Shown: positions 35,766 through 62,094 of the stretch, in pieces
Numbering within the stretch: position 1 is the first letter of the stretch
Layout: each line of letters begins with the position of its first letter
NCBI GenBank assembly: GCA_028289675.1
Contig: JANQOL010000444.1
Coordinates: 2,026 to 66,025 of the forward strand
Reading direction: 5' to 3'
From: Pirellulaceae bacterium
GTDB taxonomy: Bacteria; Planctomycetota; Planctomycetia; Pirellulales; Pirellulaceae
Length of the DNA: 64,000 nucleotides
Translations under genes and position numbers: made by a program
The notes under the pieces: model-generated
Told to the model about the DNA's origin: nothing
Database searches by the model: none
The model's input: the letters and a program-made list of their open reading frames with translations, nothing else

Positions 35766-35815
35766 GCTTTTCTCTCAAACTTGCTGTGGATGATGTTCCC
35801 GGCACCAACTCAATT

Positions 35816-39233: not shown

Positions 39234-39410
39234 CGACTAAAGGAAACCAAATCCCCCTGAAAGCCCCGTAAGGGTAATCTCGCCGATGTACTGTCGCCAA
39301 ATCTTAACGTTGATGCTATTCTGAGTTTTCCCTCTCCTCTTGGGCTGGCCGCTCTCAGATTCGCCATACAAATCAAACTCAACAAATCACATTTACAAAC
39401 AGAATAAGCC

Positions 39411-42253: not shown

Positions 42254-42400
42254 TACATACTTAGGGTGGTTCGATAATTTCGATATGGGTATTTATGGCG
42301 ATTTTTCGCGATACACACCGCTCGAAAGTGCTGGATTATCCAACTTAGCAACCTTTGGATGTGCCAAGGGTCAACTCATTTCCCGACTAGGAGCAGTCTC

Positions 42401-43054
42401 ATGTCAGTTGCCGAACTCGCTGTCGCCAAACCACGAACTCACGAAACCCACCTTCGTCCGACCAATGTCAGCGGACACGTCATTGGGCTCAGCTTCAACA
42501 CGCTGCCGGGCAACAATCCCAGCAAGTTCGCCAATTCGGTCTACATCTGGCAGAACTCAAACCAGATTCCCTGGGGGTCGAAACCACTGAACATGCAACA
42601 GGTGGGCACCAGCACTCCTGACGGAGACCTGCAGTTCAAGGACTTGGACGTGACAGTGAACAGCTACATCATCGGTTACGCGGTTGGCCCAGACGTGACA
42701 AACATCTGCGCTAGCTCGTTTGTGCCCAAGATCGGCGACACGAGCGACAAACCGGTGAATCAGTCTCTGTCGATCAGCGTCGTCAACATTGGCGCCAACT
42801 CACTGGCCATTGGTTACAACGCGCTTCAAGGCTACGCCCCATCAACCGCACAGAATTGGCTGGGCTTGTGGGAAAGTTCATCACCTTCTTACACGGTCGA
42901 ACCCCAGTGGAAAACCGAGCCCGACGGTGATTCTCCAACAGGTGTTGCCGCGTTCAATAACATCACCATCGTCCGCGGCGGGACGTATACCGTCGCCTAT
43001 TTCATGGGTCCCAAGCAAACGACGATGGCGGCCACGCTTACGTTTACCGTGTAA
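42401..43054 (+). CDS. Hypothetical protein A: tandem two-domain beta-sandwich protein
   Basis: AGGAG RBS; internal duplication (FNTLPGNNP...VYIWQ and YNALQGYAP...WLGLWE); paralog of the next gene. Confidence 0.8.
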   Translation: MSVAELAVAKPRTHETHLRPTNVSGHVIGLSFNTLPGNNPSKFANSVYIWQNSNQIPWGSKPLNMQQVGTSTPDGDLQFKDLDVTVNSYIIGYAVGPDVTNICASSFVPKIGDTSDKPVNQSLSISVVNIGANSLAIGYNALQGYAPSTAQNWLGLWESSSPSYTVEPQWKTEPDGDSPTGVAAFNNITIVRGGTYTVAYFMGPKQTTMAATLTFTV

Positions 43055-43222
43055 GCCCACCGTAGTGTTCCGCCTCGATCGGTAGCGAACAGCACTTTGG
43101 TGCTGTTCGCTCTTTCGGCTCCTCCCGGGTCCGTGCGTGAACGCCCAGCGCGGACCAACAGTTTGCGGGCTCAGCGCTCGCAACAGCAACTGCCACCCCC
43201 TGCCCGTCTGAGAGATCTAGCG

Positions 43223-43879
43223 GTGAGTGTGAACCAACCCTTTGCAGTTCTCAGTCGCACCAAATCGTTTTCGACGCACGTAACAGTCGATTATGTGACC
43301 GGTAAGGCCATCGGTGTTAGTTTCAAAACGGTTTCCGGCAACCGCCCCAAGACGTTCAACAACACATTGTTCTTATGGCAAAACCCCAACCAGATTCCTT
43401 GGGATGTCGAGCCGTTGCACCGTCAAAAGATTCTGTACGACGGTGGACCTGACGGTTCTACCAACATTCAAGACGTACACATTACATCGCAAAGCTACAT
43501 TATCGGCTACGCGGTGGGTCCGAGCGTATCCGACATTTGTGCTTCGGCCTATATTTCGGCCGAGAACAACATTGAACATCCTGAGACCACGATGTCTCTA
43601 ACGCTGAAGTTCGCCGGGCCCACTTCCTGCGCCGTGGACTTCACCACATTGCCCGGCTACCGACCGGAAGCCAACAGAAACTGGGCAGGCATCTGGAATA
43701 GCTCCTCCGCCTCTCATTGCGTGCCTCCCAAGTGGCGGACGGAGATTCACGGCAACTCCTCCAACGGCTTGGCCGCCTTCAACAACATCTCGTTGGAACG
43801 TGATGGAACTTACACCGTGGGTTACTTCATGAGTCCGAATCAAAGCAGCCTGGCTGCCACGTTAACGTTCACGGTTTAA
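43223..43879 (+). CDS. Hypothetical protein B: paralog of 42401-43054
   Basis: GTG 43223 gives MSVNQ..., aligning with MSVAE... of A. Shared WQN.NQIPW, SYIIGYAVGP, ICAS, AAFNNI and the terminal AATLTFTV. Confidence 0.8.
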   Translation: MSVNQPFAVLSRTKSFSTHVTVDYVTGKAIGVSFKTVSGNRPKTFNNTLFLWQNPNQIPWDVEPLHRQKILYDGGPDGSTNIQDVHITSQSYIIGYAVGPSVSDICASAYISAENNIEHPETTMSLTLKFAGPTSCAVDFTTLPGYRPEANRNWAGIWNSSSASHCVPPKWRTEIHGNSSNGLAAFNNISLERDGTYTVGYFMSPNQSSLAATLTFTV

Positions 43880-43908: not shown

Positions 43909-46900
43909 GTGGCTTTCTTCAACCAAAGTCCTTTCAGCAACCAGCTCTTTATGGGCTCTGAAGCTCAATCGGATCGGGGACAAGTATGGCTCGTCTTGCC
44001 CCGTGGGCACGGCGAACCGATATCGCTGGAACAGGCCCTGCACGACGATTCGCTACGAGCCAACTTTGCTTTTTCAGCGGCGCCGATCGTACTGGATGAC
44101 GCCGACGCCGCGAGTCAATTCGTGCAGACGATATTGAAGGTCGCCGGAACCGTGGCGGCAGCCCGCTCGATCCTGTGGCTGCGAGACTCGACCGATATTT
44201 CACCACCTACCGTGGCTCTGTTGGGAATCGCGCCGGACGGCACTTTCATCCAGGGAGGTCTGGGAGGCGGCGTCCTGATCGAGCAAATCTTGCAGTTCAA
44301 GATCCCCAATGGGACTCGCCTCGAGCTGGCGTCGGAGACGCAAGTCATCCTGAGCACCGTTCAGGGCAACAAGATCGGTCTCGCCTTCAACGGCGATGGA
44401 ACGCTGCGATCCACGGGCGCCGACCATGGGATGCTTGACTTCAGTGGTCCATACCGCGGCTGTGTGCGATACACCGACGAGATCCAACAACAGTCACTGC
44501 GTGAACAGTTGTTCTGGGGGTTTCAGTTTTCGATTCCAACCAAGCAGCCGGTACGCAGCGCCATCCATGAATATCTGCCAATCGCCGGCAGAGGCGATAG
44601 TTCCAACAACGGCGCCAGCCCAACTGATCAAGTCCAGTTCGCCGTCAGCATTGATCTGAGTGACCCTTTGAACGCTCAATGCCCCACAACGACCGATCGT
44701 ACAGCACTAACTTTTACGGGTACGACTCAGAAACAAAACGGACAACAGATACCCACTCGATTGGCTTCCTACTATCGCACGATCTATGGACACGCCATTG
44801 ATCTGCTGCCACTGGGGATTCACCAAGCAACCAGCAGTGAGATTCCGGCTCGGCTGGTTTTCGCGCTCGGTGAGCAAGTCAAAGATGGCACGCTGGCGTA
44901 CCACAGTTGTCCGGTTGGTGACTATGCCTTGCAAGTTGGCGGGCGGACCGGGCATTTTGATCTGCTGTGTGGATTGACCGGCACCGAATTCTTGGCCTTT
45001 CAAGCGGGGACCGATGCTGCATCTAGTGACCGCTTGCGCTTCGCAGCTCGTCAACCGGCGTTCGCGGCCAATTATCCATTCCCTGAAGCGTCACCAGTTG
45101 GCAAACCGCTGCAGTCTGGCGAGATGCTGCTCAAACCCAACTACTTAACCGCGTGGGGAACGGTGGTTCGACCGCCAGACAGCGGCACCAGAGGGCAGAT
45201 TCCTTACGTGGCCCAGCCCAAGGGCTCGTCGCTGTACGGTCGCGACGAACTGATCCATAGTTACAGCCCGCAGTTGTTTGGATTCAAAGACCCTAGCGTG
45301 GTCCTGCCCGATACCGATTTCACTTTTCCCATTCCGCCGTACGCCGGCGCCATCCCCAGCCAGGACGGCGTGGCCACTTTTAACAAGCAGCAAATCGAAG
45401 CCGTCGAGCGCGAGGTCCTAGGCCCCACTCGCCGGGATCTGATTGGAAAACAGAACCCAAGTCAAGCGGCTTCGAAAATGGAATGCCTGACTGGTGTCAC
45501 GACCAATCAGAGTCCGACCAACTCCACTACCCCGACCGGCCTGATCGCCACCGTTGACGGCGGCGGCCGGTTCACCAAGGTGCTGCTGGGTCAGAATCTG
45601 CATGGTCCGCAAGGCCAGACACGGCAGATGGCGTTTTGCCAGCTGCAACCCAAGCTGCAGCAGGCCATGCAGACCAACCAGTTGTTGCTGGTGGTCGCCA
45701 ATCCAACGGAACTGGGTGCCATGTCCGGTGGCGGTGACGGCACCTGTGACAGCAAGTCTCAGTTTTTCAACCAGATGAACATTGAGGACTGGTCTTTAGA
45801 AGCCGATGTGGGGCAAAACGCCTACAACGATTACCACAATGTCATGATCTTCAAGGGTCGCAAAGGACCGCTGTACGACCCAAAATATGCTGACCGCCAG
45901 GATGGATCTAAAGAGCCATCCAATCTGGTGTCCAATCCAAATCTATGGACGCAACGGGAGACATTTGCCTCTCCCAGCACGCAGGACGACCCGACACCCG
46001 ACCCAACGCAGCAGATCATTCTCTCGGGCTGGCTGCAAAAGTACTTTCAGGAAGCCAGTCAGCAAACCGGCAACGTCTACTTTGAGAAGTTCAACGCGAT
46101 TGCCAAAGATCCCAACTGGACCGGCATTCTTGTCTTGCGGATGAACATTGCTGAAATCCCCTCGGATCTGGCGGGCATCACTGCCGGCGTATCCGCGCCC
46201 GAACGGTTCAACGCACATCACTTCGGCATTGAAATCGGTCAAGTTCAAAACGACCCCGGAGCGCCACAGATCGAGCTGTCCGACTCCAGTTCCATGTTCG
46301 GTCTGATCTACTACGTCGATCCTGACTTCCAGCAGCCCGATGAGGGACAACCGGCCGAACCCATCGCCCCCGCTCCCGGCGCGATTTACGACTTTCGTCT
46401 ACTGACCTTGAAGGTCCTCTTTGAAAACACGGCTGTCAGCAAATTCGAAAGCCTGGCACAACTCACGCTCAACCGATTGTTTGACATGTCAGTCACCCAC
46501 ATGGGCTCCGGCGGCAATGGGTTCAATACGATCGTGCTCCAAGGAGGTTATCAGAACAACAATGGAAACCCCGTATACAGCCTTAGTTCGACAGCCGACA
46601 ACACGTTCTACTTCGACAGTAACATCTTCAACAAGATCGAGATCGATAGTGCGCAGCTGACCACGCGCAGCTCCGGCTATTTGTTCGATTTAGACAAGTC
46701 GTTTTCTGACGCACTAAACCAGGGCGGCGAAGTACCGCCCGAACTGCGCGACGTTTTTCAGACGCATCACATTTCGTTGTCCGAGGCTGCCCGCATCAAA
46801 CCGCTGGAATCCAATCGTCTGTGGGACATCGACGACGGCGATTCCCAGTATCAAATCGAGAGTGATTTGAAGTTGCAGGTGTACGGTGACGTCGTTTCGT

Positions 46901-47760: not shown

Positions 47761-47909
47761 GTCTGGGAGCGCCTCATTTGACTGGGACTGGCCGTTGTCA
47801 CCGCCAGCTGGCCAAGCAACGGCAGACTTGCCACCACAAACAGACACTAGCATCGCTGAAGCGACCCCAATGACCCTCGCAAGCCCATTAGGGCACCGGA
47901 AGGCTGACC

Positions 47910-50900
47910 ATGCTTGAGGAACTGCTCGCCAAGCTAAAAGACAACTCGTCGAAGTCTTGGGATGAAGACATCCTCCACGGCCGAAAAGACATCGGTAAGC
48001 TGCTGGCGGCACAGCCGGAGATCCGCATCTTTGTCGACGGTTCGGCCAATTTCGGACACCAGGCATCGACAGTGCTGATTATGCGGCGCTTGGTTCAGGA
48101 CCTGGGCTATAGCAAGTTGCTTACCGCGGTTGTCACCAGTGGCGGGGAGAAACAGCTGACCAAGCTTGTTCCCGGCTACACCGAAGGCAATTTGGATCCC
48201 ATCGATTTCTATGGTGCTCAAGCTCGTTTCATTCCTCGGAATACATTCGAAGAACATGCAGACAAATACCCATACGTACTGTTGGGATTCACTGGTGGCG
48301 CTGACGAAGACAGCGACTACACCGGTGTCGTACGCAGTTATCTGTTCTTGCGGCTACAACCCTACCTCTGGCCACCCAAAGAGAGCAAGTACATTCGTCG
48401 GCAACTCGAGTACACGTTTCCTGGCCACGAGGAGGACGACCCGCATCGAATTGAGTTGGAGACCGTATTGGAACCCGCATCCGACAAAGCGGGGCCCAAG
48501 CTCAAATACCGTGCTTACCATCAACCTGTGCCCCGCTTTGATGAGATTCCTTGGGACACGTATGAGAAGAAGGGGCCCGAGCAGCAGCGCAAGCACGTCA
48601 CCAATGCCCTGGTGTTGGTAAAAAACCTGGGAACGCATTTCTTGCTTCCCAGTTATGCCTTACGGCCGGGCGGCCAGACTCAGAAGGACCCGTCCAATCT
48701 ATGGGCACAGCTAGTCATCTCGGTCTTGCAAGCTCAGACGATGGGCTATCCCAAGGGTCCCGCGGTGTTGGTCAACTTCGATGATCAAGTCACTGATGAC
48801 GTATGGACTCAATTGGAAGCTCTCTTAAAAGGCGGACCCAGCACCTTTGAAAAGCAGATGCAAGCCTTTTTGCAAAAGGTGCCTCCCAAGATAGTCGAGT
48901 TGCAAGAACAAGCCTCCAAGGCCAATCCTGAAGAGCGTGGTGAAATCGAGAAAAGTATCAAGGAATTGCAGACCAAGCAGGCGTCTTACGAGCAGTATAT
49001 GCAAGCGTACAAAGAACGCGGGAAGTACCTGCAGACGCTGGCTGCTGAAAAGCGATTCTTGCCAGTGCTACGCGTTCCGGACCCCACGTTGATTCAAAGC
49101 GCGTTGTCAAAAGTCGACGCCAATCAAGTACTCCTGATCAATCTGGGAGGTGTGCCACCAGAAATCTATCACTACATATTTTCTCTGGCGAAACTCCCCA
49201 GCATCTTCGAAGGGGCGGCTACCGCCGGCCAAGCCATCAACACGGGGTTGCCCTATCTACACCTCAGACACACGCAACTGGCCAAGACAGATGTGGTGCT
49301 CTATCCCTCCACGTTAGCCAGTGGCAATAACTACTCCGACGTCGCGGGTTACTGCCAGGTTGCCGCCAACGCCATCACAGAAGGCATTGATGACAAAGTT
49401 CTCAAGAGGCCGCCCGACCAGTGTATGGCCGCGGCTCTGAAGACCGCAACGTTTATCCAGGAGGCTTACCAGAGTGAATCGAAGATCCACAGATACTTTG
49501 ATGAGGTTCGACAGTTCTACAGCCGGCCTACCAACGGCATTTTGAATGTCACGCTGGCGGTCATGAATGGGGTCTACCAGGAGAACGAAGGCAAATTCAA
49601 TCCCAAGACACCCATGCTGCTGGCCGCGGAAGACAGCCCTCTGGAAACGCTCTACAAATGCATGACGGAGCATACGACTCCACCGCCGCAAAGCCAGCTT
49701 AGCCTCATTCCCACTTGCTTAAACGAAGGGGCCATCGCCTCTTTCTACCAAGCGTTGCTGCCAGGCAATGACCTGACCATCGACACTGCCACCATCACGC
49801 CAACTCGCGACGACAAAAATCAACTCACCAAGATCACCGTCTCCGGCAAGACCAGCTCGTTCGGGCTGAACATGGATGTGCCGCTGCTGGAGTTTACCGA
49901 CGCGAATGGCTCGCTCAGCACTTTGGGTAGATTCACCAGTCAAGAAACATGGCAGCTAGGGGGCATACCATGGATCGGTATTGAAGACGCTGGCTTCGAG
50001 ATCAATTTGACCAACGGTACCACACCCACTGCCGGTGCCATTCTGGGACGCATCAAGAACACCGACCTGGAGATGCGCGTCAATCTGCCACCGACGGACA
50101 ACAAGTGGTTGATCTCCGGGACCGTCGCGAAAGACGGCGACGCAAGCATTGCCCAAGTCTACGAAATGGCGGGCGGAATCAATTTGATTGCTAGCCTGCC
50201 ACCTGGGTTAAAGACGCTAGCAGGCTTCGAACTGCAACAGTTTCAAATTTCTCATGATTTCTCGACGGGGAGTATCGAATTCACGCGCTTCATCGTCGGC
50301 ACGCAAACCCCATGGGAGTTGATCCCGGAGATCAACCTCAGTATTCAATCCGTAACGCTGGACGCGGTGATTCAAAAACCGGGCAGCTTGAAGAATCGCA
50401 AGCTGGAAATGGATGTCACCGGAAAATTCACTTTAGGCGGTGGCACCATCCAAGTCTCTACCCACATCCCGGGTTTTCAAGTGCAAGGCGGATTGACGGA
50501 AGGAACCATCCGGCTGGACGACATCCTGACCAAATTTTTGCCAGGTGTATCCATTGATTTGAAGACCGAGATCACCACCTTTGAATTCAATGTGGACCCA
50601 ACTGCCAAGAGCTACTCGATAACTACCGGACTGAAGAGTGATTGGAAGATTGGCGACATCTTCACCATTACTGGCATCGACTTCCATGTGGAGAACGGTG
50701 GTGGGGAGACATCGGGAAGTGTTACCGGCAACACAGTCTTCATGCCACAGTCGACCAACATTGGCTTAAGCGTCTCAGCTTCTTACGACGCCACTGAGAA
50801 GGGATGGACATTCAGTGGCCATAACACAAACCCGATTGAAATCAGCAAGCTGCTGAGCGGAGATCCGTTCAATTTCAATACCGACTCGCAGGACAAGAAA

Positions 50901-53900
50901 CAGATCGACAAACTGGCTCTGTCACTAACCACCGGAGACAAATCCTGGACCTTTGAGGGCTCGATCAGCGATTGGAAGATCGACTTTCTTGATCTGCTGA
51001 TCAAGAAAGCCTCTTTGAAAGCCGGCTACAACGGCCCGAAGAACCAAGCGTTGCTGCTGCCGCCGTTGCGTCAATCAAACGCGGCGGTGTTGGTGCCTTT
51101 GGTCGACGCGAACTCACTGATTGAACCTGCTTCAGGCGAGCTGCCAGCGGGCACGCAACCAAAGGGCAATTACTTCGCCAACATCGATGCTGATCTAGAG
51201 TGGCTGGGCGTCAATCTGAACACTTGGCTCAAGTTCTCGACAGACAAGGGCCCCAGCTGGGGTGTCACGATACCCGATCTGAAACTGAGCGGATCGGTCA
51301 GCAAGAATAGCCAGAAGCAGTGGGTCGGCACTCTGAAATTTCCCGACGACGTGACGGTTGGCTTCTTGATCGAACACATGGTGTCCTGGATCACCGGATC
51401 CAAATTTGGCTTGGAGGCCCCTTGGGACTTCCTGAACAGCATTAACTTGAGCGCGTTGGAGCTGGTGTTCAACTTCTCAACGAAGCAAGTCTCGTTTAAG
51501 GTCAACATTGGACCGATCGACTTGGGATTCGCGCGCATCGACGGGATCAACGTCAGCTACGAACGCGGCAACGCAGATCCGGCGAAGAATGGTGTTCAAG
51601 TCAGCCTAGCGGGTTCGTTCCCGTGGAATATCGGCGACGACAAAGTCGGCGATACCGGCAACCTAGGACCATGGAATGCTGCGGAGCCGGGAGCCGCTCC
51701 GGCGCCTCCCGGTCAAGGCAACAAGTACTTTGACATTCGCATGCTGGCCATGGGCCAACACGTAACACTGCCTTGCTTCACTGATCCGGACACGAACACG
51801 GTGCAGAAGGCCATCGCGTGCATGCGCAATCTGCCGCAGCCTCCTGATCCCGGCAAGCCCACCATTCCTCCGGTGCAGTTCGATTCGCAAAGCTCTTGGT
51901 TGATTGGCGCCGACTTTGGCATTCTCAAAATCGGAGACAGCAAGTCTGCAAACGGCAAGCCTAAGAAACCGGGCCGCCCGTCGCTGCCAACAAAATCCGA
52001 TTACCAACCCACCGAATGCTTGGCCATGGCGGAGACAAAAAACGCGCCAGGTTACGTATTCAATATGCAAGTCGTCTTCAACGACCCCAGCATCTACGGT
52101 CTCCGCATCGCGCTAGCTGGCGACGCGGCCAAGATCTTCAAAGGGCTGGAGTTTCAAATCATGTACCAGCAGGTCAGCCCGACGGTCGGCGTCTACCGCT
52201 CCGAGATTACGCTGCCGGATATCATGCGGCATTTGAGTGTGGGCGCGTACTCGGTGACCTTGCCTGTATTTGGCATCGAGATCTACACCAATGGTGACTT
52301 CCAAGTTGACATCGGGTTTCCGTGGGATGAAGACTTCTCCCGGTCATTCTCTATCGAAGGCATCATCGCACCCGGTATTCCGGTGATGGGATCTGCCGGC
52401 TTCCACTTTGGCAAACTCTCCAGCGCGTCCACCAATCGCGTTCCGCAGGCGACCAACGGCACGTTCAATCCCGTCATTGTCTTCGGCTTTGGACTGCAAG
52501 TCGGCTTTGGCAAGTCGGTCCACTACGGCATTCTGAGCGCTGGCTTTAGCCTGACAGTGGTCGGCATCATCGAAGGCGTCCTCGGCAAGTGGAACCCCTA
52601 TCCCGACGGAGGCACCGGCACGCCGCGGCTAGGCAACAATGGCCTGGCTGAGAGCAACTCACAGATCCAGGGAGCCTACTACTTCTGGTTGCGCGGATCG
52701 GTAGGCGTGATTGGCAAGCTGTACGGCACTGTCGACTTCGCGATTATCAAAGCCGACGTCAATGTCGAAATCAAGCTGCTATTGCAGATGACGTATGAAA
52801 CCTACGTCTCCATCACGATCTCGGTGATCGCATCAGTCAACGTTTCGGTCAGTGTCAAAATCAACCTGGGACTCTTCAAAGTCAGCGTGTCCTTCAGCTT
52901 TTCGTTGAAACTGAAGGAAACCTTTACGATCGACAACCACGGCGACGCACCGTGGAAAGTGGGCGGACATAGTCAGAAGCAACTGTTGCGAGCTCCGGCT
53001 GACCGGCGGTTGCGCGTCCATCGGGCGCTGGAACCGATGATTTTGCTGTCGCTGACCGATGGACCGAACTGGTCACGCCTGAGCGCGCCGACGCAGCCCA
53101 CTCCGCTGACCAGTTGGCTTACTACAGCTTTGACGGTCGCCCACGACGAATGGAAGACTGACTCTCAGAAACCGGCAGATCAGCGTCCCTGTTACGTGGC
53201 CATGTTGATGCTGGACTCCGTGGCGGCGCCCCAATCCGACAAGAAGACCGCAGCCCTCAAAGCCAGTGGGGCGGAAGCAGATTCGTCGTTCGAGTTGTTG
53301 GCCAAAATGGTCTTGCGGTGGATGGTTGCCGCATTGCAGAGCAAGCCGTACACGCCCGATCAGATCGACGATTTGGTGGTCACGGAAACGCAACTTCGAT
53401 ATCTCACCGAGAATGTCTTGGTCAGCTCGGATGATCGGCCCACTCCGATTCCCGAAGAAGCCATTGAGTCGTTTCTATCCGCGCAGTTCAAATTGAACGT
53501 TCGGCAGGCTCCTGATCAGGACAATACTGGCCAGGAACCGCATACGACCTATTTCCCAATGGCGCCCGACATCAAGCTGCATGTGCCCGCCTATGGCAAT
53601 CAGCATGAATACAACTACACGTTCGCTCAATACAATGCCATTGACGACAGTGGGCTCAGTTTCTTGCGCAGCTACTTTGACGAGTTGGCAGTGCAGGTCG
53701 AACATGAAATGGCCGCCGATCGCGACGATGCTCGCCCTATGGCCCTGGGAGACCAATCTTACTCCATGGCCCAGTGGGTCATGACCGACTATTTCCTGCT
53801 GCTGGCACGCCAGATGGTACAAGCCGCCCGCGATGGCCTGCGTGATTTTAAGTTTCCCATCGAAGATAGCTCGGATCCGAATCACCCCGACACGCCGACT

Positions 53901-56900
53901 GGAATCGTGGATTGGATCAACGCCGAAGGTCAACTCTCCGGCGCCGATGCCTACACACTGGACAGCCTGTTCGCCGCCAATTTGACTCATGAACTGGCGC
54001 CAGGAAAACCGCTGACCATCGGAACCCGCGTACCGGTCGAAGACGACAATACGTCATTTGAGAATTTCGCGAGCAACACGTTGAATCAGTCGCTAACGGC
54101 TGTTGAGGTAGCCACATTGAATGCGGCGAACCAGTCCATTCTGCGGCCTGGCGTGATCATTCAATACCGATCGACTCCCGAATCCGCCCCTGTCACGTAC
54201 ACCACGCGGGCCGGTGACTCGCTGCTAAGTATTGCCGGCTACTTCAAAGTCCGGTTGGCAAGTGGATTGTTGGTGCGTTCGAACGTGCTGCGAGTCGACC
54301 AACTGCTGACTGCTGGATCGTCACTAGCAACCGGGGGTGTCACCTACCAAGTCCTTGCCAGCGACACGTTCGATTCCATCGCCAAAGCAGCCATCTATCA
54401 GTCCGCTTTTACCGCGCAGCAGTTGGCGCAGCAAAACGCGGGCGCCAGCATTCTAAGGACGGGTGCATCCGTGAGCCTGTCTGGCAAGTCGCACACGGTT
54501 CAACCCGCCGAGTGCCTCGGCGACGTCGCCAACGCGTTGGGTGTGACCATCGAGGCGTTGACCGCTGACAGCAAACTGCTGAGTCAAGCCGATCTGATGT
54601 TACCCGTTGCCAAACTGTCGCTACCACAATTCAACTTACAGACGACCACAGGCCAAACTTTCGAATCCATCGCAACTCAACTGGCCGTGTCGAATGAAAT
54701 CTTCGGCGCATCGGCTGCCAATGGAAAAATCGAGTCTCTATTCGTCACTGAGAGTTCCGGTGGCCAGGCCACTCCTAACTTGGATGTGCCCCATTTGACT
54801 CAATTCAAGGTGAAACAACTGCTGGCAGAAGCCCAACGCACTCAGGTGATGCAGCACCTGTCGGGCATGGCTTCTCGATATTATCTGCATGGCATGCGCT
54901 TACCCACGGCAAATGCCGACCAGCCGATCATTGACGCGCAACATCCGGGTATGTGGGTTGGCGACGATTTGCAACTGCCACCGCATGCGGGACTGTACGC
55001 TCTGACAGGCCAGCAGTTTGAAATTCCTGACATTGGAACGGAGCCGTTTACAGCAACCTTATCGGCAGGACCTCAATGGCTATCTTTCGAGAAGTACGTT
55101 CAGAAAGACAAACAATGGGAGTGGGAACCCGTTCCGGAACTGACTGTTTCCGTGTCGCCGGGTTCGGATGAATCTAAGTTTATTCAACAGGTCACCCAGT
55201 TCGCGCAAAGTCAGCCACTGAATACTCAGTTGACCGAGCTGGGCCCCGAACCGATGTACACCAGCCAGTTGGCGACCTACCCGTTAACGTCGTCGCTGAC
55301 TTGGCAGGCTGCGTCCTCGATTCGGTTGAGCTACGGCAAAGATCCTGGTGGTCCCCCGGAACTGCGGCTCTGGCGTCTGCCCGACACGCTGATCAACTTG
55401 CCAGACCCTGCACACCGCGCCCTTGATCCGCGCTTTGGTCTGAGAATTGGACGCTACGACGAGGCCACAGGTGGCACGGTCAAGAGTGACGTCAGCTACT
55501 ACAGCTGGGCATCGACCATCGAATTCACGGTGAAACGTGTGCCTGAGACCACTGCCGCAACGAAGTCGACCTACGAAATCATGGGTGCTGATGGCAACGC
55601 AGCGACAACTCTGGAGCGGCTGCTGGCCGCGGTGGGCGATCAAGATGCGTTGATCGACCAATTGATCGTTAGCTATCCGCCGGCCGACGCCAAGAACGGA
55701 GCCGGTATCCAAACCGGTGCCGTAGATGGCATCACACTGGGAATCGCGCAGGTCAATCTGTCCACGGACACGCGGCCACCTGCTGCGATGGACATCGAGA
55801 TGTTTGCGGAACAGGCAGAACAAGGGCGCGGATTGCTGAACACCAAGACCGAGTTCCTGCGTTGGCTGTGGGAAGCCAGCATCACTCGTTCCGGTGGCTT
55901 CTATTTGTATTATCACGATTCAGAGCAGAAGAGCGGCCTGCCAGATCGGGTCTTCAATGACAAAGGGGAAGCTCAACTGACACTGGTGGTCCTGTATCCG
56001 CGACCTGAAGCTGCGAACGCACAGAATGTCATCGGCAACTACATGAACGCAGCCGTGACCGGAGAAAGTATCGACCCAGCCCACTCGGTGGTCTTCACCG
56101 AAGCCGACCCCGCCCAAGATCCGCCGCCGCAGGTCAAATTGACGGACACCGACACCTTGGCGGACATAGCGTATCGATACTATTCCAACGTCGGGGACCT
56201 GGTCGAGTTGCCCACCAACACGGAACTGAAGCTAGCTGACAAAGTCGAGGTGCACATCGATCATGGCCTGTACTTTGTCACTCCCAACGCACCCGGTGGT
56301 GCGTTGAGCCAGATCATCGATCACTTTGGCATCACGTTGGATCAACTCAAGCAGGCCAATCCGAAGCGGACCGATTGGCCGGATACTTTGCCGACAGGTA
56401 CAGCGTTGCGGCTACCCAAGCTGACAGTTGTGGTGCAGGACAGCAGCAAAGGCGGCAACACGCTGGCGAGTTTGGCGGACTACTTTGGCGTCAACCTCAC
56501 TTCCTTGGCCGCGCAAAACCAACACATGCCGGGACTGTTGGGTGCCGACCAACTGATGACCATCAGCGGCGGACCGCGACTTCGCACCGCCACGGTGCCT
56601 CCTGGAGTCGAAGCCTTGGCGGCGGCCCGCCCGGTGCCAGCGGAGTTGACGACCAACCTGAGCTCGCCGGAGTCTCCTGAGGTCTTCCTGCAAAACATGT
56701 ACAGCTTGCTCAACTACCGAGTCGAAGCCAATGACGACTTTGCGGGCAGCAAGATTGGTCTCCCAGCTGGTCCGACCACCACACCGGAGGATCCAGACAG
56801 CCACGACAAGATTCGCGCGCCCAGAACACTAACAGCTGGAGTGGACCAATGGCACTACAAACAGGCGCTGCCGTACACCAAATTCGTCAAGCATAGCCTG

Positions 56901-59900
56901 ACCGACGAAGCCGACCTACCCGCCATTTCGACAAGTCCGTACATCGGCGTCAATTCCGTGCTGCAAATTGACTTCGATTGGCAGGACTACTTTGGCAATA
57001 CCCTCGTTACCGATCTGTCCAGTCCCAAGGCCGGCGACCGCGGACCGTTCAACGGCGCCCCCATGCTGACCGGGTATACCGACGCGATGTTGGGTCTGAG
57101 TCAGTGGCCGTCCATTACTTCTGCGTGGCAGTTGGCGCCCAAACTCGGCGCAGATCCGCAACTGGAAATGCTGCTCAGCTTCGACAACAGCCACTACCAA
57201 GGACTCTTGCAGGCGACCGCCACCGATGAAAAGTCGGTTGCATTGAAGTTCACGCAACCTTTGGATCCAAATACAGCCAACAACCCCAGCAACTTTGCGA
57301 TAGAAGGTGTGGACGTCAGTCAAGCCACTCTTTCAGCGGATGGCTTGAGTGTGACCCTGTCGGTGTCTGGGCTGACCGATGGCAATCGCTACTCTGTCGC
57401 CGTGCGAAATCTGCTCACCACAAAACAACAGTCCGTCGATGGACAGGCCGCATTCAGCTACCCGAATGATCCCGCCAACCAGTCGTCGACCGTTCAGCAA
57501 AACGCGGTTCGAGACTTGCGGGTCCTGCGACGTCTCTACTATCAGTTGACCGACCCCAACGGAATCTCGTTTGAGATCCAGTCCAGTTTGTTGCGAGGCG
57601 ATGACGGAAAACCTGGCACGTTGCCGGTTCAGCCGGGCCCTTTGCTGGACTGGCTGTTTAACGGTACCGTCGATGCGACCGGCATCTACGCGTTCATCAA
57701 GGATCGATCCCAGTTCGGCACACAGACCGAAGCACCTCCTGCGGATCTGATGATTTCCAATAGCATCACCGCGGATCAGCTAAATCCGTCTCAGTTGTTC
57801 GAATTATCGCTGTCTTTTACTATGAAACGCACCGGCGGAATTTCGCTGGGAGACTTGGAAACTACTCCCGGCATCCGGCAAGTGACGACTCGCGTATCGG
57901 CAATGACATCTCACTTGGACAGCGGTGACAGCACATTGGGCCTCAAGACGTTTGCCGAAAACTTTGAGGCAGCTCTCTCCCAACCTCAGACCCTTCAAAT
58001 GAAAGTCGCCACTGGAACGAACCGGCATCGCGTCAGCTCGGGCGGGCAGAGCGATACGGTGTGGGCCGTGCGTTTGGGCGAACGTAACGACCAACATCAA
58101 TGTGTTCAGGAAGACGCCATCTGCATTTCAGTGGACGAACAACAAGAACCTACCTTGTTCGCGCCGCGCCCAATTTCCAACACGTTGGAAAGCGGCCATG
58201 GCGTTCCGATCTACGACTACACTTCCGGTCAGGGTCTGAGTCCGACACCCTCGCGCAATGTCGATTTTATCGATATCGACATGGATAGCTGGGGTCGTCA
58301 GTTCTTAGGTGATTTCGACAGTCTGCTATCGCCCAAATTTACATCCACCATTCAGCTAGTTGACAAATATCAAAACGCTGAGTTTCTCCAAGACATTCTT
58401 GATCAAAAGAAGAAGTTGGCCGGAATTCTGAAACTGTGGATGATTCCGCTTTTCGCCGACGAGCACACTGATCCCACTCATGCGCGAGAGGCATTCTATC
58501 AGCAGCTGCTGTCTCGGCTGAGCAACGCGTACACCACGCGGGCGACCATCCAGCGAGCCATGAATGTGCGGGCCAGCGCCGACCAACCTGGGTCGGCTAC
58601 GGCGGTACCCGCGAAGACGATGGCCCGAAAAACCGCGTCCGAATCGCTCTTATTCAATGCGGCAACAACTACCATCGACCAACTCCGGCAGATCCAAGTG
58701 CGCTTCAACCAGCCTGTCGATGCCACCACCGGTGGCGCGGTTTCCAACTATGTCCTGACCGGAGGACTAACCGTGACGGAAGCCAGTGTTCCGACCGGCA
58801 GCAGTACCGTATTCCTGACGATATCCGGCGACGCCACGCCGCGCACAACTCAGTTAACCGTTGGTTCCGCGGTGAAATCCGCCCAAGGCGACAGCTTGCA
58901 GGGCCCAGTTCAACGCACAGTGTTTATCGCACCCCGCTTGTATGGCAACGTCACCGAACGCGAACCGCTGTTCGACTCGGCCACTACGACGTCCGGCCAG
59001 CTGAAGCAAGTTGTGTTGAAGTTCAATTTCAGCCTGGATCCAGACTCGGCGAAGTCCGTCGAAAACTACCAACTTTCAAATTCCGCCAAAGTGGTCAGGG
59101 CGACTTTGAACTCGACGCAAACCGAAGTGCAACTGGAACTGGATTCGGAAGCCGAACTGGACAAAACGACGATCACTGTCGGTGAATTGAAAGACACGCT
59201 CAATCGTGGCATTCTGACGCCTCGCACGCGGACGATTACGTCGTCTTCAAAGATTATCGAGGCCAAATCCGCGATCAGCCTTTCCTCTCCAAAATTGAAC
59301 TTGGTCGACGAGCAAGGCCAGCCTCTGACGTTCTTGTTGTCTTCTCCCGGACTGGTACGCGGCGAAGGCAACGAGGTTGTACCGTATGTATCGTTGGATG
59401 TCGAATACCGCGGGGCCAATATCGAACACCAGATTGGTGCCGTACCCGGTATCAAAGACTATGCGGCGTCCAGCTGGCTGAGCTTCGTCATTCCCGACCA
59501 ACAAGGACCACTGTCTGTCGAATTGGGACAATTCACCGTTCCCATGGTTCTGCGATCGTTTCCGGCCAGTGCGTCGCTAAGTGACCAGAATGGGCAGGCC
59601 AGCTTTCCGAATAGCGAACAGCTAAGCCAGCTGACACGTTGGGACTATGATCTGACCTACGCGCTTCCTTACCATTACCCGCAAGATCGCGTCCACGCAT
59701 CTGTCGAGTTCAACATCGGCGAACGGGTCCAAATGTTGGCGGGAATCGAGGATGCCTTCAATCAGCTTGCTCAATTTGTCACGGTGATGCCCAAAGTTCA
59801 AAAAGATTTTGATCAGTACTTGGGCACCATTGACGCGACAACCGCTCCAGATGCCGAAGAAGTCGCCAAGGCCGCCGTAGCGCTGGATGCATTCTTGAAG

Positions 59901-60866
59901 ATGGTTAAGGACATCACGCAGGCCGCCGAGAACAACGGATTGATCCGAGCAAGCGCTTATTTGCCACGACAGGGAGATGCAAGCTTGACCTACACTTTCA
60001 GCGTCCAGGAAGGTGTCGCGGTGATCGACGGCGTCGACGCGCTGACCATCACTGTCTTCGGCAAGCCACCGGCCGGTATCGGTGATCCTGAAGTCTATGT
60101 GGACCCGAAACACTACGAGATGCAGCGGCTGACGGCGAATTGCGAGGGTGATTACTGCTTCTGGTATCGTTCTCGAAAAGACCAGAAACCACTCAGCGCT
60201 TCCGCAGGTCAAGCGATTCAAGACCGGATGGTACGCCTTCCGAACATGGATGTACTGCAACGCCAGGATGCGTGGTCCACAGTCTATCTGAAGCGAAACC
60301 AAGAGCTGATTCCCGGGAAACCGACGGCCGAACCGTTCGTGTATACGACGTCCAAAGTGCAATTCAAGAACCCGCTATTGCCGACGTTGGACGTGGATCA
60401 GGTCATCCCCATAGCCAACTTGAACCACACCAAACCTCACGTGCGCTCGCTGCGTGAACAGTTGCAAACCTTGTTTGACACGCTGCTCAAAGACAATGTG
60501 GAAGACAGCTTGCTCATTCAGGTCGAGTCCACGTATGAGTACGACGTGACTTCGCATCTTTCGGCCATCCCACTACCAGTATTTATGCAAGCTCCTCTGA
60601 TGGTTAACGTCAAGGACTCCGCCACGGCCGGATCCGGCAGTGTGACTCTAGCGGAGACGCTGGACAGCTGGGCAGGCGCGATTGAACTGTGGTTCAAAAA
60701 CCATGCTCCACGACCGGTGGGCGAGCCCGGCGATCTGTATTTTGATCTCAGCCTGATGTCCAATCTCACCACGCAGCCAATGCCTCTGTTGCGGCTAAGG
60801 CGATTGCGTCTGGAACTAAGCTCCGTCCAACCTCCACTGACGCAAACCGCGATGGCAATGGTCTAG
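47910..60866 (+). CDS. Giant 4318-aa multidomain protein: putative GT-B glycosyltransferase + beta-rich region + LysM-like repeats + Ig-like domains
   Basis: 12.96-kb open frame with GGAAGG RBS. LysM-like YTTRAGDSLLSIA, YQVLASDTFDSIA, GITLDQLKQANP; Ig-like F.QP.D...A....N(F/Y) three times; N-terminal FGHQ and EG...A...GLP motifs. Confidence 0.9.
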   Translation: MLEELLAKLKDNSSKSWDEDILHGRKDIGKLLAAQPEIRIFVDGSANFGHQASTVLIMRRLVQDLGYSKLLTAVVTSGGEKQLTKLVPGYTEGNLDPIDFYGAQARFIPRNTFEEHADKYPYVLLGFTGGADEDSDYTGVVRSYLFLRLQPYLWPPKESKYIRRQLEYTFPGHEEDDPHRIELETVLEPASDKAGPKLKYRAYHQPVPRFDEIPWDTYEKKGPEQQRKHVTNALVLVKNLGTHFLLPSYALRPGGQTQKDPSNLWAQLVISVLQAQTMGYPKGPAVLVNFDDQVTDDVWTQLEALLKGGPSTFEKQMQAFLQKVPPKIVELQEQASKANPEERGEIEKSIKELQTKQASYEQYMQAYKERGKYLQTLAAEKRFLPVLRVPDPTLIQSALSKVDANQVLLINLGGVPPEIYHYIFSLAKLPSIFEGAATAGQAINTGLPYLHLRHTQLAKTDVVLYPSTLASGNNYSDVAGYCQVAANAITEGIDDKVLKRPPDQCMAAALKTATFIQEAYQSESKIHRYFDEVRQFYSRPTNGILNVTLAVMNGVYQENEGKFNPKTPMLLAAEDSPLETLYKCMTEHTTPPPQSQLSLIPTCLNEGAIASFYQALLPGNDLTIDTATITPTRDDKNQLTKITVSGKTSSFGLNMDVPLLEFTDANGSLSTLGRFTSQETWQLGGIPWIGIEDAGFEINLTNGTTPTAGAILGRIKNTDLEMRVNLPPTDNKWLISGTVAKDGDASIAQVYEMAGGINLIASLPPGLKTLAGFELQQFQISHDFSTGSIEFTRFIVGTQTPWELIPEINLSIQSVTLDAVIQKPGSLKNRKLEMDVTGKFTLGGGTIQVSTHIPGFQVQGGLTEGTIRLDDILTKFLPGVSIDLKTEITTFEFNVDPTAKSYSITTGLKSDWKIGDIFTITGIDFHVENGGGETSGSVTGNTVFMPQSTNIGLSVSASYDATEKGWTFSGHNTNPIEISKLLSGDPFNFNTDSQDKKQIDKLALSLTTGDKSWTFEGSISDWKIDFLDLLIKKASLKAGYNGPKNQALLLPPLRQSNAAVLVPLVDANSLIEPASGELPAGTQPKGNYFANIDADLEWLGVNLNTWLKFSTDKGPSWGVTIPDLKLSGSVSKNSQKQWVGTLKFPDDVTVGFLIEHMVSWITGSKFGLEAPWDFLNSINLSALELVFNFSTKQVSFKVNIGPIDLGFARIDGINVSYERGNADPAKNGVQVSLAGSFPWNIGDDKVGDTGNLGPWNAAEPGAAPAPPGQGNKYFDIRMLAMGQHVTLPCFTDPDTNTVQKAIACMRNLPQPPDPGKPTIPPVQFDSQSSWLIGADFGILKIGDSKSANGKPKKPGRPSLPTKSDYQPTECLAMAETKNAPGYVFNMQVVFNDPSIYGLRIALAGDAAKIFKGLEFQIMYQQVSPTVGVYRSEITLPDIMRHLSVGAYSVTLPVFGIEIYTNGDFQVDIGFPWDEDFSRSFSIEGIIAPGIPVMGSAGFHFGKLSSASTNRVPQATNGTFNPVIVFGFGLQVGFGKSVHYGILSAGFSLTVVGIIEGVLGKWNPYPDGGTGTPRLGNNGLAESNSQIQGAYYFWLRGSVGVIGKLYGTVDFAIIKADVNVEIKLLLQMTYETYVSITISVIASVNVSVSVKINLGLFKVSVSFSFSLKLKETFTIDNHGDAPWKVGGHSQKQLLRAPADRRLRVHRALEPMILLSLTDGPNWSRLSAPTQPTPLTSWLTTALTVAHDEWKTDSQKPADQRPCYVAMLMLDSVAAPQSDKKTAALKASGAEADSSFELLAKMVLRWMVAALQSKPYTPDQIDDLVVTETQLRYLTENVLVSSDDRPTPIPEEAIESFLSAQFKLNVRQAPDQDNTGQEPHTTYFPMAPDIKLHVPAYGNQHEYNYTFAQYNAIDDSGLSFLRSYFDELAVQVEHEMAADRDDARPMALGDQSYSMAQWVMTDYFLLLARQMVQAARDGLRDFKFPIEDSSDPNHPDTPTGIVDWINAEGQLSGADAYTLDSLFAANLTHELAPGKPLTIGTRVPVEDDNTSFENFASNTLNQSLTAVEVATLNAANQSILRPGVIIQYRSTPESAPVTYTTRAGDSLLSIAGYFKVRLASGLLVRSNVLRVDQLLTAGSSLATGGVTYQVLASDTFDSIAKAAIYQSAFTAQQLAQQNAGASILRTGASVSLSGKSHTVQPAECLGDVANALGVTIEALTADSKLLSQADLMLPVAKLSLPQFNLQTTTGQTFESIATQLAVSNEIFGASAANGKIESLFVTESSGGQATPNLDVPHLTQFKVKQLLAEAQRTQVMQHLSGMASRYYLHGMRLPTANADQPIIDAQHPGMWVGDDLQLPPHAGLYALTGQQFEIPDIGTEPFTATLSAGPQWLSFEKYVQKDKQWEWEPVPELTVSVSPGSDESKFIQQVTQFAQSQPLNTQLTELGPEPMYTSQLATYPLTSSLTWQAASSIRLSYGKDPGGPPELRLWRLPDTLINLPDPAHRALDPRFGLRIGRYDEATGGTVKSDVSYYSWASTIEFTVKRVPETTAATKSTYEIMGADGNAATTLERLLAAVGDQDALIDQLIVSYPPADAKNGAGIQTGAVDGITLGIAQVNLSTDTRPPAAMDIEMFAEQAEQGRGLLNTKTEFLRWLWEASITRSGGFYLYYHDSEQKSGLPDRVFNDKGEAQLTLVVLYPRPEAANAQNVIGNYMNAAVTGESIDPAHSVVFTEADPAQDPPPQVKLTDTDTLADIAYRYYSNVGDLVELPTNTELKLADKVEVHIDHGLYFVTPNAPGGALSQIIDHFGITLDQLKQANPKRTDWPDTLPTGTALRLPKLTVVVQDSSKGGNTLASLADYFGVNLTSLAAQNQHMPGLLGADQLMTISGGPRLRTATVPPGVEALAAARPVPAELTTNLSSPESPEVFLQNMYSLLNYRVEANDDFAGSKIGLPAGPTTTPEDPDSHDKIRAPRTLTAGVDQWHYKQALPYTKFVKHSLTDEADLPAISTSPYIGVNSVLQIDFDWQDYFGNTLVTDLSSPKAGDRGPFNGAPMLTGYTDAMLGLSQWPSITSAWQLAPKLGADPQLEMLLSFDNSHYQGLLQATATDEKSVALKFTQPLDPNTANNPSNFAIEGVDVSQATLSADGLSVTLSVSGLTDGNRYSVAVRNLLTTKQQSVDGQAAFSYPNDPANQSSTVQQNAVRDLRVLRRLYYQLTDPNGISFEIQSSLLRGDDGKPGTLPVQPGPLLDWLFNGTVDATGIYAFIKDRSQFGTQTEAPPADLMISNSITADQLNPSQLFELSLSFTMKRTGGISLGDLETTPGIRQVTTRVSAMTSHLDSGDSTLGLKTFAENFEAALSQPQTLQMKVATGTNRHRVSSGGQSDTVWAVRLGERNDQHQCVQEDAICISVDEQQEPTLFAPRPISNTLESGHGVPIYDYTSGQGLSPTPSRNVDFIDIDMDSWGRQFLGDFDSLLSPKFTSTIQLVDKYQNAEFLQDILDQKKKLAGILKLWMIPLFADEHTDPTHAREAFYQQLLSRLSNAYTTRATIQRAMNVRASADQPGSATAVPAKTMARKTASESLLFNAATTTIDQLRQIQVRFNQPVDATTGGAVSNYVLTGGLTVTEASVPTGSSTVFLTISGDATPRTTQLTVGSAVKSAQGDSLQGPVQRTVFIAPRLYGNVTEREPLFDSATTTSGQLKQVVLKFNFSLDPDSAKSVENYQLSNSAKVVRATLNSTQTEVQLELDSEAELDKTTITVGELKDTLNRGILTPRTRTITSSSKIIEAKSAISLSSPKLNLVDEQGQPLTFLLSSPGLVRGEGNEVVPYVSLDVEYRGANIEHQIGAVPGIKDYAASSWLSFVIPDQQGPLSVELGQFTVPMVLRSFPASASLSDQNGQASFPNSEQLSQLTRWDYDLTYALPYHYPQDRVHASVEFNIGERVQMLAGIEDAFNQLAQFVTVMPKVQKDFDQYLGTIDATTAPDAEEVAKAAVALDAFLKMVKDITQAAENNGLIRASAYLPRQGDASLTYTFSVQEGVAVIDGVDALTITVFGKPPAGIGDPEVYVDPKHYEMQRLTANCEGDYCFWYRSRKDQKPLSASAGQAIQDRMVRLPNMDVLQRQDAWSTVYLKRNQELIPGKPTAEPFVYTTSKVQFKNPLLPTLDVDQVIPIANLNHTKPHVRSLREQLQTLFDTLLKDNVEDSLLIQVESTYEYDVTSHLSAIPLPVFMQAPLMVNVKDSATAGSGSVTLAETLDSWAGAIELWFKNHAPRPVGEPGDLYFDLSLMSNLTTQPMPLLRLRRLRLELSSVQPPLTQTAMAMV

Positions 60867-61350
60867 ATTGCTGTCGCTGGACGCCATGGACGTCTCGTTC
60901 TTCAGGACCGCTGCTGATCTATCTGATCTGGATCGGAAGCACCTAGAGCATTTTGCTTTTGAAGTGGCCCGTTTTCGACGGAATAAGCAACCACCAGCTT
61001 TGATGACGCAGGCCATCTGTCCGTGCGACTCGCACTAGCCGGTTTGTCAAATCGATTTGGAGTACCATTTGTTGATGGGCGATGACCGCCAAGAGCGGAG
61101 TTCGTTCAGATGGTGCGTCTGCACACGTGTATGGCTATGAAGATCGTTTGTGCCGCGCGCTATATCGGTGTGCACCCTGCACTCGCGAATTGGCACGACC
61201 GGTAATGGCCCCTACCAAACAGAATGCTCTTCTAGAGCGGTTTACATTTTCGTGTGACCTTGTTTCGGCAGATTCAGGCCGTGTTTTCGTTGATGAAGCA
61301 AGCCGAATGCCCGTGCGGCTCGCACTAGCTCAAAACTCCTGGAGACAGAG

Positions 61351-62094
61351 ATGCAAATTTTCGCCAAAAAACTCGTTGTTACTGCTGGCTTAGCTTTGAC
61401 GATATGTGTTTTCCTCAACCCCGGTTTGTCCGCCCAAGAAGCGGACGATGGGTTTGTCAGTCTGTTCAATGGCCAAGACTTGGCGGGCTGGGAAGGCGAT
61501 GAGCGTTTTTGGCGCGTCGATTCGGGAGCGATCGTGGGTGAAACCACTAAAGACAACCCGACCAAGAAGAATACGTTTCTCGTATATCGCCGCGATTCGG
61601 TGGATGACTTTGAACTGCGGTTCTCGTATCGCGTGCGAGGTGGCAACTCTGGCATCCAATATCGCAGCGAGCTGCTCAGCAAGTGGGTGGTCAAAGGTCT
61701 GCAAGCCGATTTTGAAGACCAAATGCACGAAGGCAAAGACAAGTTCTCCGGTATGTTCTTCGAAGAAAACGGCCGTATGTTCATGGGACAACGTGGTGAT
61801 GTCATTTTTGTTCGCACGAATCCCAAGAACTTAAAGAAGCCAGTTATTGACAAGGTTGCAACGGTAGGTGAACCAGCCGAACTGGAACGCGTCATCAAAC
61901 GCGATGATTGGAATGACTACACCGTCATTGCTTCTGGCCAGGTGTTTATTCACATCATCAACGGTCACGTGATGTCGATCGGCATCGACGAAGACTTGGC
62001 CAACTTTCGGAAATCAGGAATCTTGGCATGGCAACTACACGCCGGAGATCCCTTGAAGATAGAAATGAAGAACATTCGTCTTCGAAAACTGTAG
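61351..62094 (+). CDS. Secreted DUF1080 (3-keto-disaccharide hydrolase-like) protein
   Basis: Signal peptide, GFVSLFNGQDLAGW, NSGIQYRS, DWNDY, GILAWQLH. Confidence 0.92.
   Translation: MQIFAKKLVVTAGLALTICVFLNPGLSAQEADDGFVSLFNGQDLAGWEGDERFWRVDSGAIVGETTKDNPTKKNTFLVYRRDSVDDFELRFSYRVRGGNSGIQYRSELLSKWVVKGLQADFEDQMHEGKDKFSGMFFEENGRMFMGQRGDVIFVRTNPKNLKKPVIDKVATVGEPAELERVIKRDDWNDYTVIASGQVFIHIINGHVMSIGIDEDLANFRKSGILAWQLHAGDPLKIEMKNIRLRKL

Follow-up and report, generated by a model that had tools for sequence, protein, structure and literature searches.

A predicted GT-B-fold domain of an unnamed family, with EarP as its nearest solved relative, heads a giant LysM-containing protein

EarP, the EF-P arginine rhamnosyltransferase (CAZy family GT104, Pfam PF10093, structures of the 5NV8 type, here 5XVR, 5WXK, 6J7L and 7F2A), has to our knowledge stood alone in structure among the enzymes that glycosylate proteins, and its only known role is in EF-P maturation. 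Its gene adjoins or co-occurs with an efp gene that encodes Arg32. Its residues D13, D17 and E273 (P. putida numbering) are invariant and essential for activity, while R271, F258 and S275 have been probed as donor-site residues, R271 binding the diphosphate (PMC5615199). In the enzymes of family GT1, a histidine general base stands at the first N-lobe helix and an aspartate follows approximately 100 residues later, as in the His20-Asp119 pair of VvGT1 (PMC3795551). HMW1C, a GT-B enzyme of the cytoplasm, shares a locus with its substrate, a giant adhesin that it modifies at numerous positions prior to export (PMC3983070, PMC3012730). Here we compare these enzymes with the N-terminal domain of a 4318-residue protein (P0001, the giant) encoded in a 64,000-nucleotide stretch of a Pirellulaceae bacterium (GenBank assembly GCA_028289675.1, contig JANQOL010000444.1). 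This whole stretch is termed the window and, unless another contig is named, coordinates are positions within it. We hold, at slightly better than an even chance, that the domain is a GT-B enzyme of an unnamed family, is a constant module of a set formed by three genes (A, B, C), the glycosyltransferase (GT) and the giant, and serves as the glycosyltransferase of its own system.

The fold is the most secure element of this explanation. The domain covers residues 1-567 of the giant (47910..49610, forward strand) and, judging from its AlphaFold2 model, almost certainly has the GT-B fold. The model was built from a 60-sequence alignment and is of high quality (predicted local distance difference test, pLDDT, 89.6; predicted template modelling score, pTM, 0.88). 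Its two beta/alpha blocks are preceded by an N-terminal extension of two helices (residues 2-34), and residues 567-573 are disordered. The domain can be divided into an N-terminal helix pair (residues 1-34), an N-lobe (~36-250) and a C-lobe with returning helices (~244-565); an insert in the N-lobe (~156-243) is modelled with lower confidence and a helical hairpin in the C-lobe with very high confidence. When the model is searched against the PDB with Foldseek, the significant matches listed are all GT-B proteins, namely glycogen synthase, EarP, trehalose-phosphate synthase, TreT and UDP-glycosyltransferases (UGTs). GT-B proteins also make up nearly all of the best ~45 PDB rows, aligned over model residues ~30-562.

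Within this fold, EarP is the nearest solved neighbour. A Foldseek-independent search of 48,161 representative chains returns the same order, with EarP at 15.2 followed by GT1 and GT4 enzymes at 11.7 or below, and EarP is the closest PDB structure by 4-5 Z units. The second tier consists of GT1/GT4 enzymes acting on small molecules or lipids, for example YjiC, PimA, MGD1 and BshA. In the ESM Atlas, an EarP cluster ranks first (template modelling score, TM, 0.74 over 355 residues) and is followed by GT4 clusters (0.55-0.65). Language-model features also return EarP as the first named family (0.88), which counts as a lead only. Because the model, Foldseek, the independent search and the ESM Atlas agree, the GT-B fold is well supported and EarP (GT104) is, on the predicted structure, the nearest solved relative. 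A first-pass annotation of the same DNA had proposed a GT-B domain with two Rossmann-like lobes and had named the MurG, UGT and EarP types as models. The model and both structure searches bear out the fold and its two lobes, and EarP proves the closest solved structure of the three types.

The sequence features described in that annotation are likewise recovered. The domain end that it set at 49610 corresponds to residue 567 and coincides with both the sole stretch of pLDDT<50 (567-573) and the end of split homologues. The two motifs that it quoted, IRIFVDGSANFGHQASTVLIMRRL (residues 38-61, nt 48021-48092) and LINLGGVPPEIYHYIFSLAKLPSIFEGAATAGQAINTGLPYLHL (residues 409-452, nt 49134-49265), lie where it had placed them and are non-random, as the conservation counts below attest. 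The K/E/Q-rich insert that it noticed between them is modelled as two long antiparallel helices (312-337 and 340-376, pLDDT 95-98), which form the hairpin inserted in the C-lobe (residues 312-376, 48843..49037, forward strand); across the family this insert varies from 3 to 105 residues. Its contrast between a charged domain and a T/S-rich remainder is real, though only modest in size. Lysine plus glutamate make up 14.0% of residues 1-575 versus 8.4% of the remainder, and serine plus threonine 10.5% of the domain versus 16.4% of the remainder.

The domain belongs to an unnamed family that lacks a Pfam or NCBIfam model. It has no match in Pfam, NCBIfam, PADLOC or PHROGs other than sub-threshold coiled-coil-type matches on the helical insert, and in sequence searches of the PDB neither the domain alone nor the family profile retrieves anything meaningful. 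None of 60 aligned family members matches the Pfam glycosyltransferase families, and neither the family nor the giant-protein system was found described in a literature search. Among 1.84 billion cluster representatives, searched exhaustively with HMMER, 329 are relatives at E<=1e-3, of which 150 reach E<=1e-10. Conservation was evaluated on 152 sequences, comprising the best 150 rows of this search (P0001 among them) and two more sequences. This set includes 96 free forms (<=720 residues), 40 giants (>=3000 residues, domain N-terminal) and 16 intermediate or truncated entries.

The two best-conserved motifs of the family are a GH loop and a C-terminal segment. The loop, N47-F-G49-H50-Q51 (48048..48062, forward strand), lies between strand beta1 (37-42) and helix alpha1 (49-63); G49 is kept in 146 of the 152 sequences, H50 in 132 (asparagine in 13) and Q51 in 134. 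The C-terminal segment, a putative nucleotide-sugar-binding site at residues 409-466 (49134..49307, forward strand), carries P416, F/Y420, P430, E434-G435-x-x-T438, G446-x-P448-Y/F449 and Y465-P466. Its most constant positions are E434 and G435 (148/152 each), Y465 (138/152), G446 (137/152), P466 (132/152) and T438 (118/152, serine in 28). A third conserved loop, G129-G130-A-D132 (48294..48305, forward strand), follows the strand at 123-128 in the model (G129 144/152, G130 135/152, D132 127/152 with glutamate in 13). Other conserved residues are R39 (142/152), Q150 (143/152), P151 (146/152), W154 (137/152), Y249 (143/152) and Y529 (137/152). R39, H50, Q51, D132, Q150, E434-G435-x-x-T438, G446-x-P448 and Y465-P466 form a family-specific set. 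Eight of these residues (R39/H50/Q51/D132/Q150/E434/G435/T438) are jointly intact in most members, fused and free alike, and the exact combination RHQDQEGT occurs in 23 of the 40 giants, in 48 of the 96 free forms and in P0001.

Despite its structural proximity, the domain cannot be placed in the EarP family. As far as alignment can tell, the two share a scaffold and place their functional loops alike, and the features that define EarP fail. PF10093 matches none of the 60 family members at E<=0.1 and does not match P0001 at E<=1. For comparison, 31 EarP sequences were gathered with PF10093 from Pseudomonadota genomes, all of which contain the motif W-D-I-F-C-x-V-V-D-N-Y-G-D-I-G. Aligned with this set by hhalign, the family gives a non-significant result (probability 1.6%, E 0.032; by halves, E 0.0067 for the N-lobe and 0.41 for the C-lobe), a low-confidence alignment that is yet co-linear with the structural match. 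It places N47-F-G49-H50 on N-Y-G-D17 of EarP, A46 on D13, F/Y420 on F258, E434-G435-A436-A437-T438 on R271-G272-E273-D274-S275 and G446-x-P448-Y449 on G-K-P-F. The counterparts of D13, D17 and E273 would thus be A46 (a variable column with P, S, N and R), H50 and A436 (Q in 76/152), so that two members of the acidic triad are absent and a conserved histidine stands in place of the third.

The domain also differs from EarP in size and surroundings. It is ~190 residues longer, with the N-terminal helix pair, the N-lobe insert (156-243) and the hairpin (312-376), and its genomic partner is the giant-protein system rather than efp: in six loci it is found alongside A, B, C and the giant. With PF10093, no EarP gene was found in the genome to which the window belongs (84% complete) or in that of Methylovulum. 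Likeness to EarP therefore lies in the modelled three-dimensional structure, and membership of GT104 is rejected on the missing PF10093 match, the non-significant alignment and the unconserved catalytic triad.

The conserved residues nevertheless lie where a GT-B enzyme would be expected to have its active site. In the model, H50 is at the end of the beta1-alpha1 loop and D132 in the loop after strand 123-128. Both are conserved and match topologically the His-Asp dyad of GT1, whose aspartate follows strand 4, although no GT1 profile matches the domain. By this analogy, H50 is a candidate general base and D132 its candidate partner. On the donor side, E434-G435-x-x-T438 starts helix 436-445 directly after the C-lobe strand 431-433. 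The N-terminus of the equivalent C-lobe helix binds the diphosphate in GT-B enzymes, where an acidic residue serves the hydroxyls of the ribose or sugar and an aromatic one lies on the base. F/Y420, E434-G435-x-x-T438 and G446-x-P448 occupy the expected C-lobe nucleotide-sugar positions and are co-linear with EarP in the non-significant alignment. Since near-invariant polar residues occupy active-site positions, catalysis can be argued, and we consider it probable that the domain is an active glycosyltransferase. It is distinct from GT1 enzymes (VvGT1; YjiC/YojK, CalG, SpnG, GtfA/D), which act on small-molecule acceptors, in that P0001 has no Pfam UDPGT or Glyco_tran_28 match and no motif of the plant secondary product glycosyltransferase (PSPG) type.

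The role of the domain is best understood from its distribution. The first-pass annotation had read it as a payload or effector of the giant. Payloads of polymorphic toxins are exchangeable, usually C-terminal domains that vary between homologous carriers and are accompanied by a cognate immunity gene. The giants found here are homologous end to end in ~40-48 representatives, vary only in the Ig (immunoglobulin)-like repeats at ~3100-3200 and ~3550-3800, and carry one kind of domain, N-terminally in all ~40 homologues; no small variable gene pair is seen. The same residues are conserved whether the domain is fused or free, and in several genomes it has its own gene at the same operon position. 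Because it is never missing, never displaced from the first position, conserved to the same degree in fused and free forms, and able to occur as its own gene at a fixed place in the operon, the domain is very probably a constant component of the system, and the payload reading is not supported.

The order of genes is preserved between the fused and split forms. In a Methylovulum metagenome-assembled genome, genes of 217, 224 and 1205 residues precede a separate 591-residue GT gene and a 3290-residue giant, and the counterparts of A, C and the giant body each align to those of the window. The separate Methylovulum GT aligns to residues 2-555 of P0001 and the separate giant from residue 580. These breaks fall at the linker and fusion joint of P0001 (residues ~565-580, 49602..49649, forward strand; pLDDT<50 at 567-573). 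The chromosome of Massilia sp. erpn encodes proteins of 240, 222, 1190, 599 (GT, WP_255754879.1) and 2993 residues, and the metagenome contig L041 proteins of 1147, 505 (GT) and >1751 residues. In a further metagenome contig (L042; 243, 239, 1189, 1268 and >4050 residues), the fourth gene joins the GT to ~750 residues. Burkholderia sp. FERM BP-3421 has the fused form, a 4120-residue protein, on plasmid p1. A FastTree phylogeny of 149 domains, in which some short entries may be contig fragments, interleaves fused and free forms, with well-supported branches forcing at least 14 changes of the 'giant' label.

On the explanation we favour, the domain would be an active glycosyltransferase that works in the cytoplasm and depends on a nucleotide sugar. 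Within the cleft, an acceptor hydroxyl would be activated by H50 as general base, probably with support from D132, while the nucleotide sugar would be held by F420, E434-G435-x-x-T438, G446-x-P448 and Y465-P466 of the C-lobe. The acceptor would be the giant itself, in cis or in trans, or A, B or C. A protein acceptor is favoured because the nearest structure, EarP, is a protein glycosyltransferase and because of the HMW1C/HMW1 precedent; by this analogy, an acceptor within the same system is a reasonable possibility, rated at somewhat under an even chance. A complex prediction for the GT domain and protein A gave a score of 0.00, a 'no answer' that speaks neither for nor against binding. More tentatively, the family may be a new one that combines an EarP-like GT-B scaffold with a GT1-like His/Asp pair, is fused to or encoded just upstream of a ~4000-residue substrate, and makes the giant self-glycosylating. 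Translated first, the enzyme would then modify either the chain that follows it or the products of A, B and C, within a giant-protein machine found in multiple phyla.

Two described systems invite comparison at the level of the locus. As with HMW1C (GT41), a soluble GT-B enzyme, here a predicted one, shares its locus with a very large surface-type protein. However, the two are not similar in sequence, nor specially so in structure (GT41 does not appear in the listed matches), the P0001 system has no two-partner secretion genes, and in most members the enzyme is physically fused to its putative substrate. The large clostridial-type glycosylating toxins (GT44) resemble P0001 as very large proteins with an N-terminal glycosyltransferase-like domain. 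In contrast to P0001, their enzymatic domain is GT-A, with a DxD metal site. The giant has no Pfam match to their translocation, protease or receptor-binding regions and consists after its domain of an all-beta core, LysM repeats and Ig-like domains.

Several observations weigh against the proposed role. Nothing in the sequence ties the domain to any characterised glycosyltransferase, as the searches of Pfam, NCBIfam and the PDB are empty and the alignment with EarP, as noted, is non-significant. E434 aligns with the diphosphate-binding R271 of EarP; donor-binding detail would therefore differ, and the EarP mode is not simply transferable. The proximity of H50, D132 and E434 to one another is deduced from topology only. 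No nucleotide-sugar gene is present in the A-B-C-giant operon of the window. NxS/T sequons are not enriched in the giant (z 0.2) or across 25 other giants (mean 0.39), which leaves N-glycosylation of the HMW1C kind unsupported. Finally, the family also occurs outside the giant system, with some members standing alone among unrelated neighbours.

The surroundings of the three free-standing members examined vary, two of them lying next to 2OG-Fe(II)- or PhyH-type oxygenases. On contig L038 (130-15599), one adjoins a UDP-glucose/GDP-mannose dehydrogenase gene and JmjC/2-oxoglutarate (2OG) oxygenases, with an NAD-dependent sugar epimerase/dehydratase nearby, a context that supports nucleotide-sugar chemistry for the family in general. 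Another adjoins a PhyH oxygenase gene (L039:156-2922), and one in Actinomadura has unrelated neighbours. The oxygenase neighbours hint at a pairing of hydroxylation with glycosylation, in a context distinct from the giant system.

Of the alternatives, the one that survives best keeps an active glycosyltransferase and gives it a glycan or lipid acceptor, for example a peptidoglycan-related or polysaccharide chain that is then bound by the LysM repeats, so that the giant would both make or edit carbohydrate and hold it. LysM repeats are binders of glycans containing N-acetylglucosamine (GlcNAc), the second structural tier is one of YjiC, PimA, MGD1 and BshA, and enzymes that O-glycosylate small acceptors typically use a histidine as their general base. 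We nonetheless regard this as unlikely: the closest structure, by the 4-5 Z units given above, is a protein glycosyltransferase, and in the window genes checked Pfam detects neither a membrane domain nor a gene for a flippase or for polysaccharide export. It is less likely again that the domain has the GT-B fold and is not a glycosyltransferase, being instead a non-catalytic binding or chaperone module, such as the GtfB-type partners in the glycosylation of serine-rich-repeat adhesins, or an enzyme of other chemistry (epimerase, phosphotransferase). Against this stand the near-invariance of H50, Q51, D132, Q150, E434 and T438 among members at 20-30% identity and the conservation of G-x-x-T and G-x-P-(Y/F) at the sites that hold the nucleotide diphosphate in GT-B enzymes.

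The distribution of the system bears on the payload reading. None of 200 further genomes sampled from the phylum of the window has the system; among Pseudomonadota it occurs in two of 400 sampled, not counting the Methylovulum genome on which the search was centred. In two strains it is on large plasmids, and tblastn finds no match in phage records. Cultured strains that carry it are Massilia sp. erpn and Burkholderia sp. FERM BP-3421. That the domain is a toxin delivered by the LysM giant to another cell, where it would glycosylate a target protein or lipid, is very improbable. In its favour, enzymatic toxin domains can be part of large multidomain proteins in bacteria, key proteins can be switched off or on by glycosyltransferases of the EarP and other protein-modifying types, and rare, patchy distribution with large plasmids is typical of accessory genes of conflict or competition. 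Against it, the domain is N-terminal and invariant in kind across homologous giants, is often a separate, cytoplasmic-looking gene of the same operon, lacks a variable toxin-plus-immunity arrangement and a PADLOC match, comes with no recognisable toxin or translocation domain in Pfam, NCBIfam or PHROGs, and has free-standing relatives among metabolic and oxygenase genes.

The giant gene itself is a stop-free open reading frame (ORF) on the forward strand (47910..60866). A Shine-Dalgarno-like GGAAGG (47898..47903, forward strand) can be read from the sequence 6 nt 5' of the ATG at 47910, and this start fits homologues whose alignments begin at residue 2-4. Following the GT-B domain are an all-beta core, LysM repeats, Big_5 Ig-like domains and a conserved C-terminal part. 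Pfam places LysM (E 1.5e-11) and Big_5 (E 1.3e-7) after the beta-rich region; the best-scoring LysM repeat (PF01476) lies at residues ~2799-2836 (56304..56417, forward strand). Residues 585-1720 (49662-53069) are modelled as almost all beta (pLDDT 77, pTM 0.44) and end in six hydrophobic strands of ~20 residues each (~1517-1675). The giants are at their most conserved in a block of this region, which includes the motif G-D-F-x-V-D-I-G-F-P-W. Compared with the PDB and viral structures, it retrieves only generic large beta-sheet or barrel rows (TM<=0.13).

Genes A, B and C are upstream of the giant and co-directional with it, and none belongs to a known family. A (42359-43054, forward strand, 231 residues) and B (43097-43879, forward strand, 260 residues as an ORF) are paralogues with 44% identity to each other, both conserved in the Methylovulum and Massilia loci. 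Their invariant residues are G39, I70, P71, Y103, I104, G106, W167, G169, W171 and Y210. An A/B pair heads the system in the window (42359-43879), in Methylovulum (L001:4343-5966) and in Massilia (L037:4731-6149). Gene C (P0002, 43909..47760, forward strand, 1283 residues) is directly upstream of the giant and has no Pfam, NCBIfam, PADLOC or PHROG match; it is 31% identical over its full length to the 1205-residue gene in the same position in Methylovulum. In a BLAST alignment, residues ~919-995 of C (46660-46890), a segment of ~75 residues, face a gap in that homologue, consistent with a lineage-specific inserted module.

Beyond the operon, the flanks are of housekeeping type, with hopanoid-type squalene/phytoene synthases, an amine oxidase, an H+-pyrophosphatase, a DUF1080-type protein and a beta-lactamase-fold protein. 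Positions 28884-30811 and 34824-41909 encode a methenyl-tetrahydromethanopterin (H4MPT) cyclohydrolase, a RimK-like ATP-grasp protein, LytB, two squalene/phytoene synthases, an amine-oxidase-type protein and the H+-pyrophosphatase. The window has two DUF1080 (3-keto-disaccharide hydrolase) genes (20744-22078, 61351-62094), which together with the genes just named give it a planctomycete-like appearance, and the next ORFs 3' of the giant are one of 103 residues (61082-61393) and then the DUF1080-type gene. In Methylovulum, DUF5691, AAA_5 (MoxR-like) and DUF5682 genes are directly upstream of the system (L001:1-4002); this adjacency is probably coincidental, because those genes are not beside the system in the window or in Massilia. 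On Burkholderia plasmid p1, a 244-residue hypothetical gene (L043:26306-27040) overlaps the end of the giant gene.

The domain is a so far uncurated form of a known class of enzymes and is tied to an undescribed giant-protein system. Its family is a second, unannotated one in which the EarP-like scaffold is present, with different candidate catalytic residues, and extends over Pseudomonadota, Actinomycetota, Bacteroidota and the planctomycete genome of the window, with hundreds of cluster representatives. RefSeq currently labels the set only as 'LysM domain-containing' or 'hypothetical'; the Burkholderia giant, for example, is a 'LysM peptidoglycan-binding domain-containing protein' with 'hypothetical' neighbours. 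The domain is a first enzymatic handle on the so far undescribed set of A, B, C, GT and giant genes. If it is true that the enzyme glycosylates its own giant, this would be an unusual fusion of enzyme and substrate and would offer a practical route to the role of the system.

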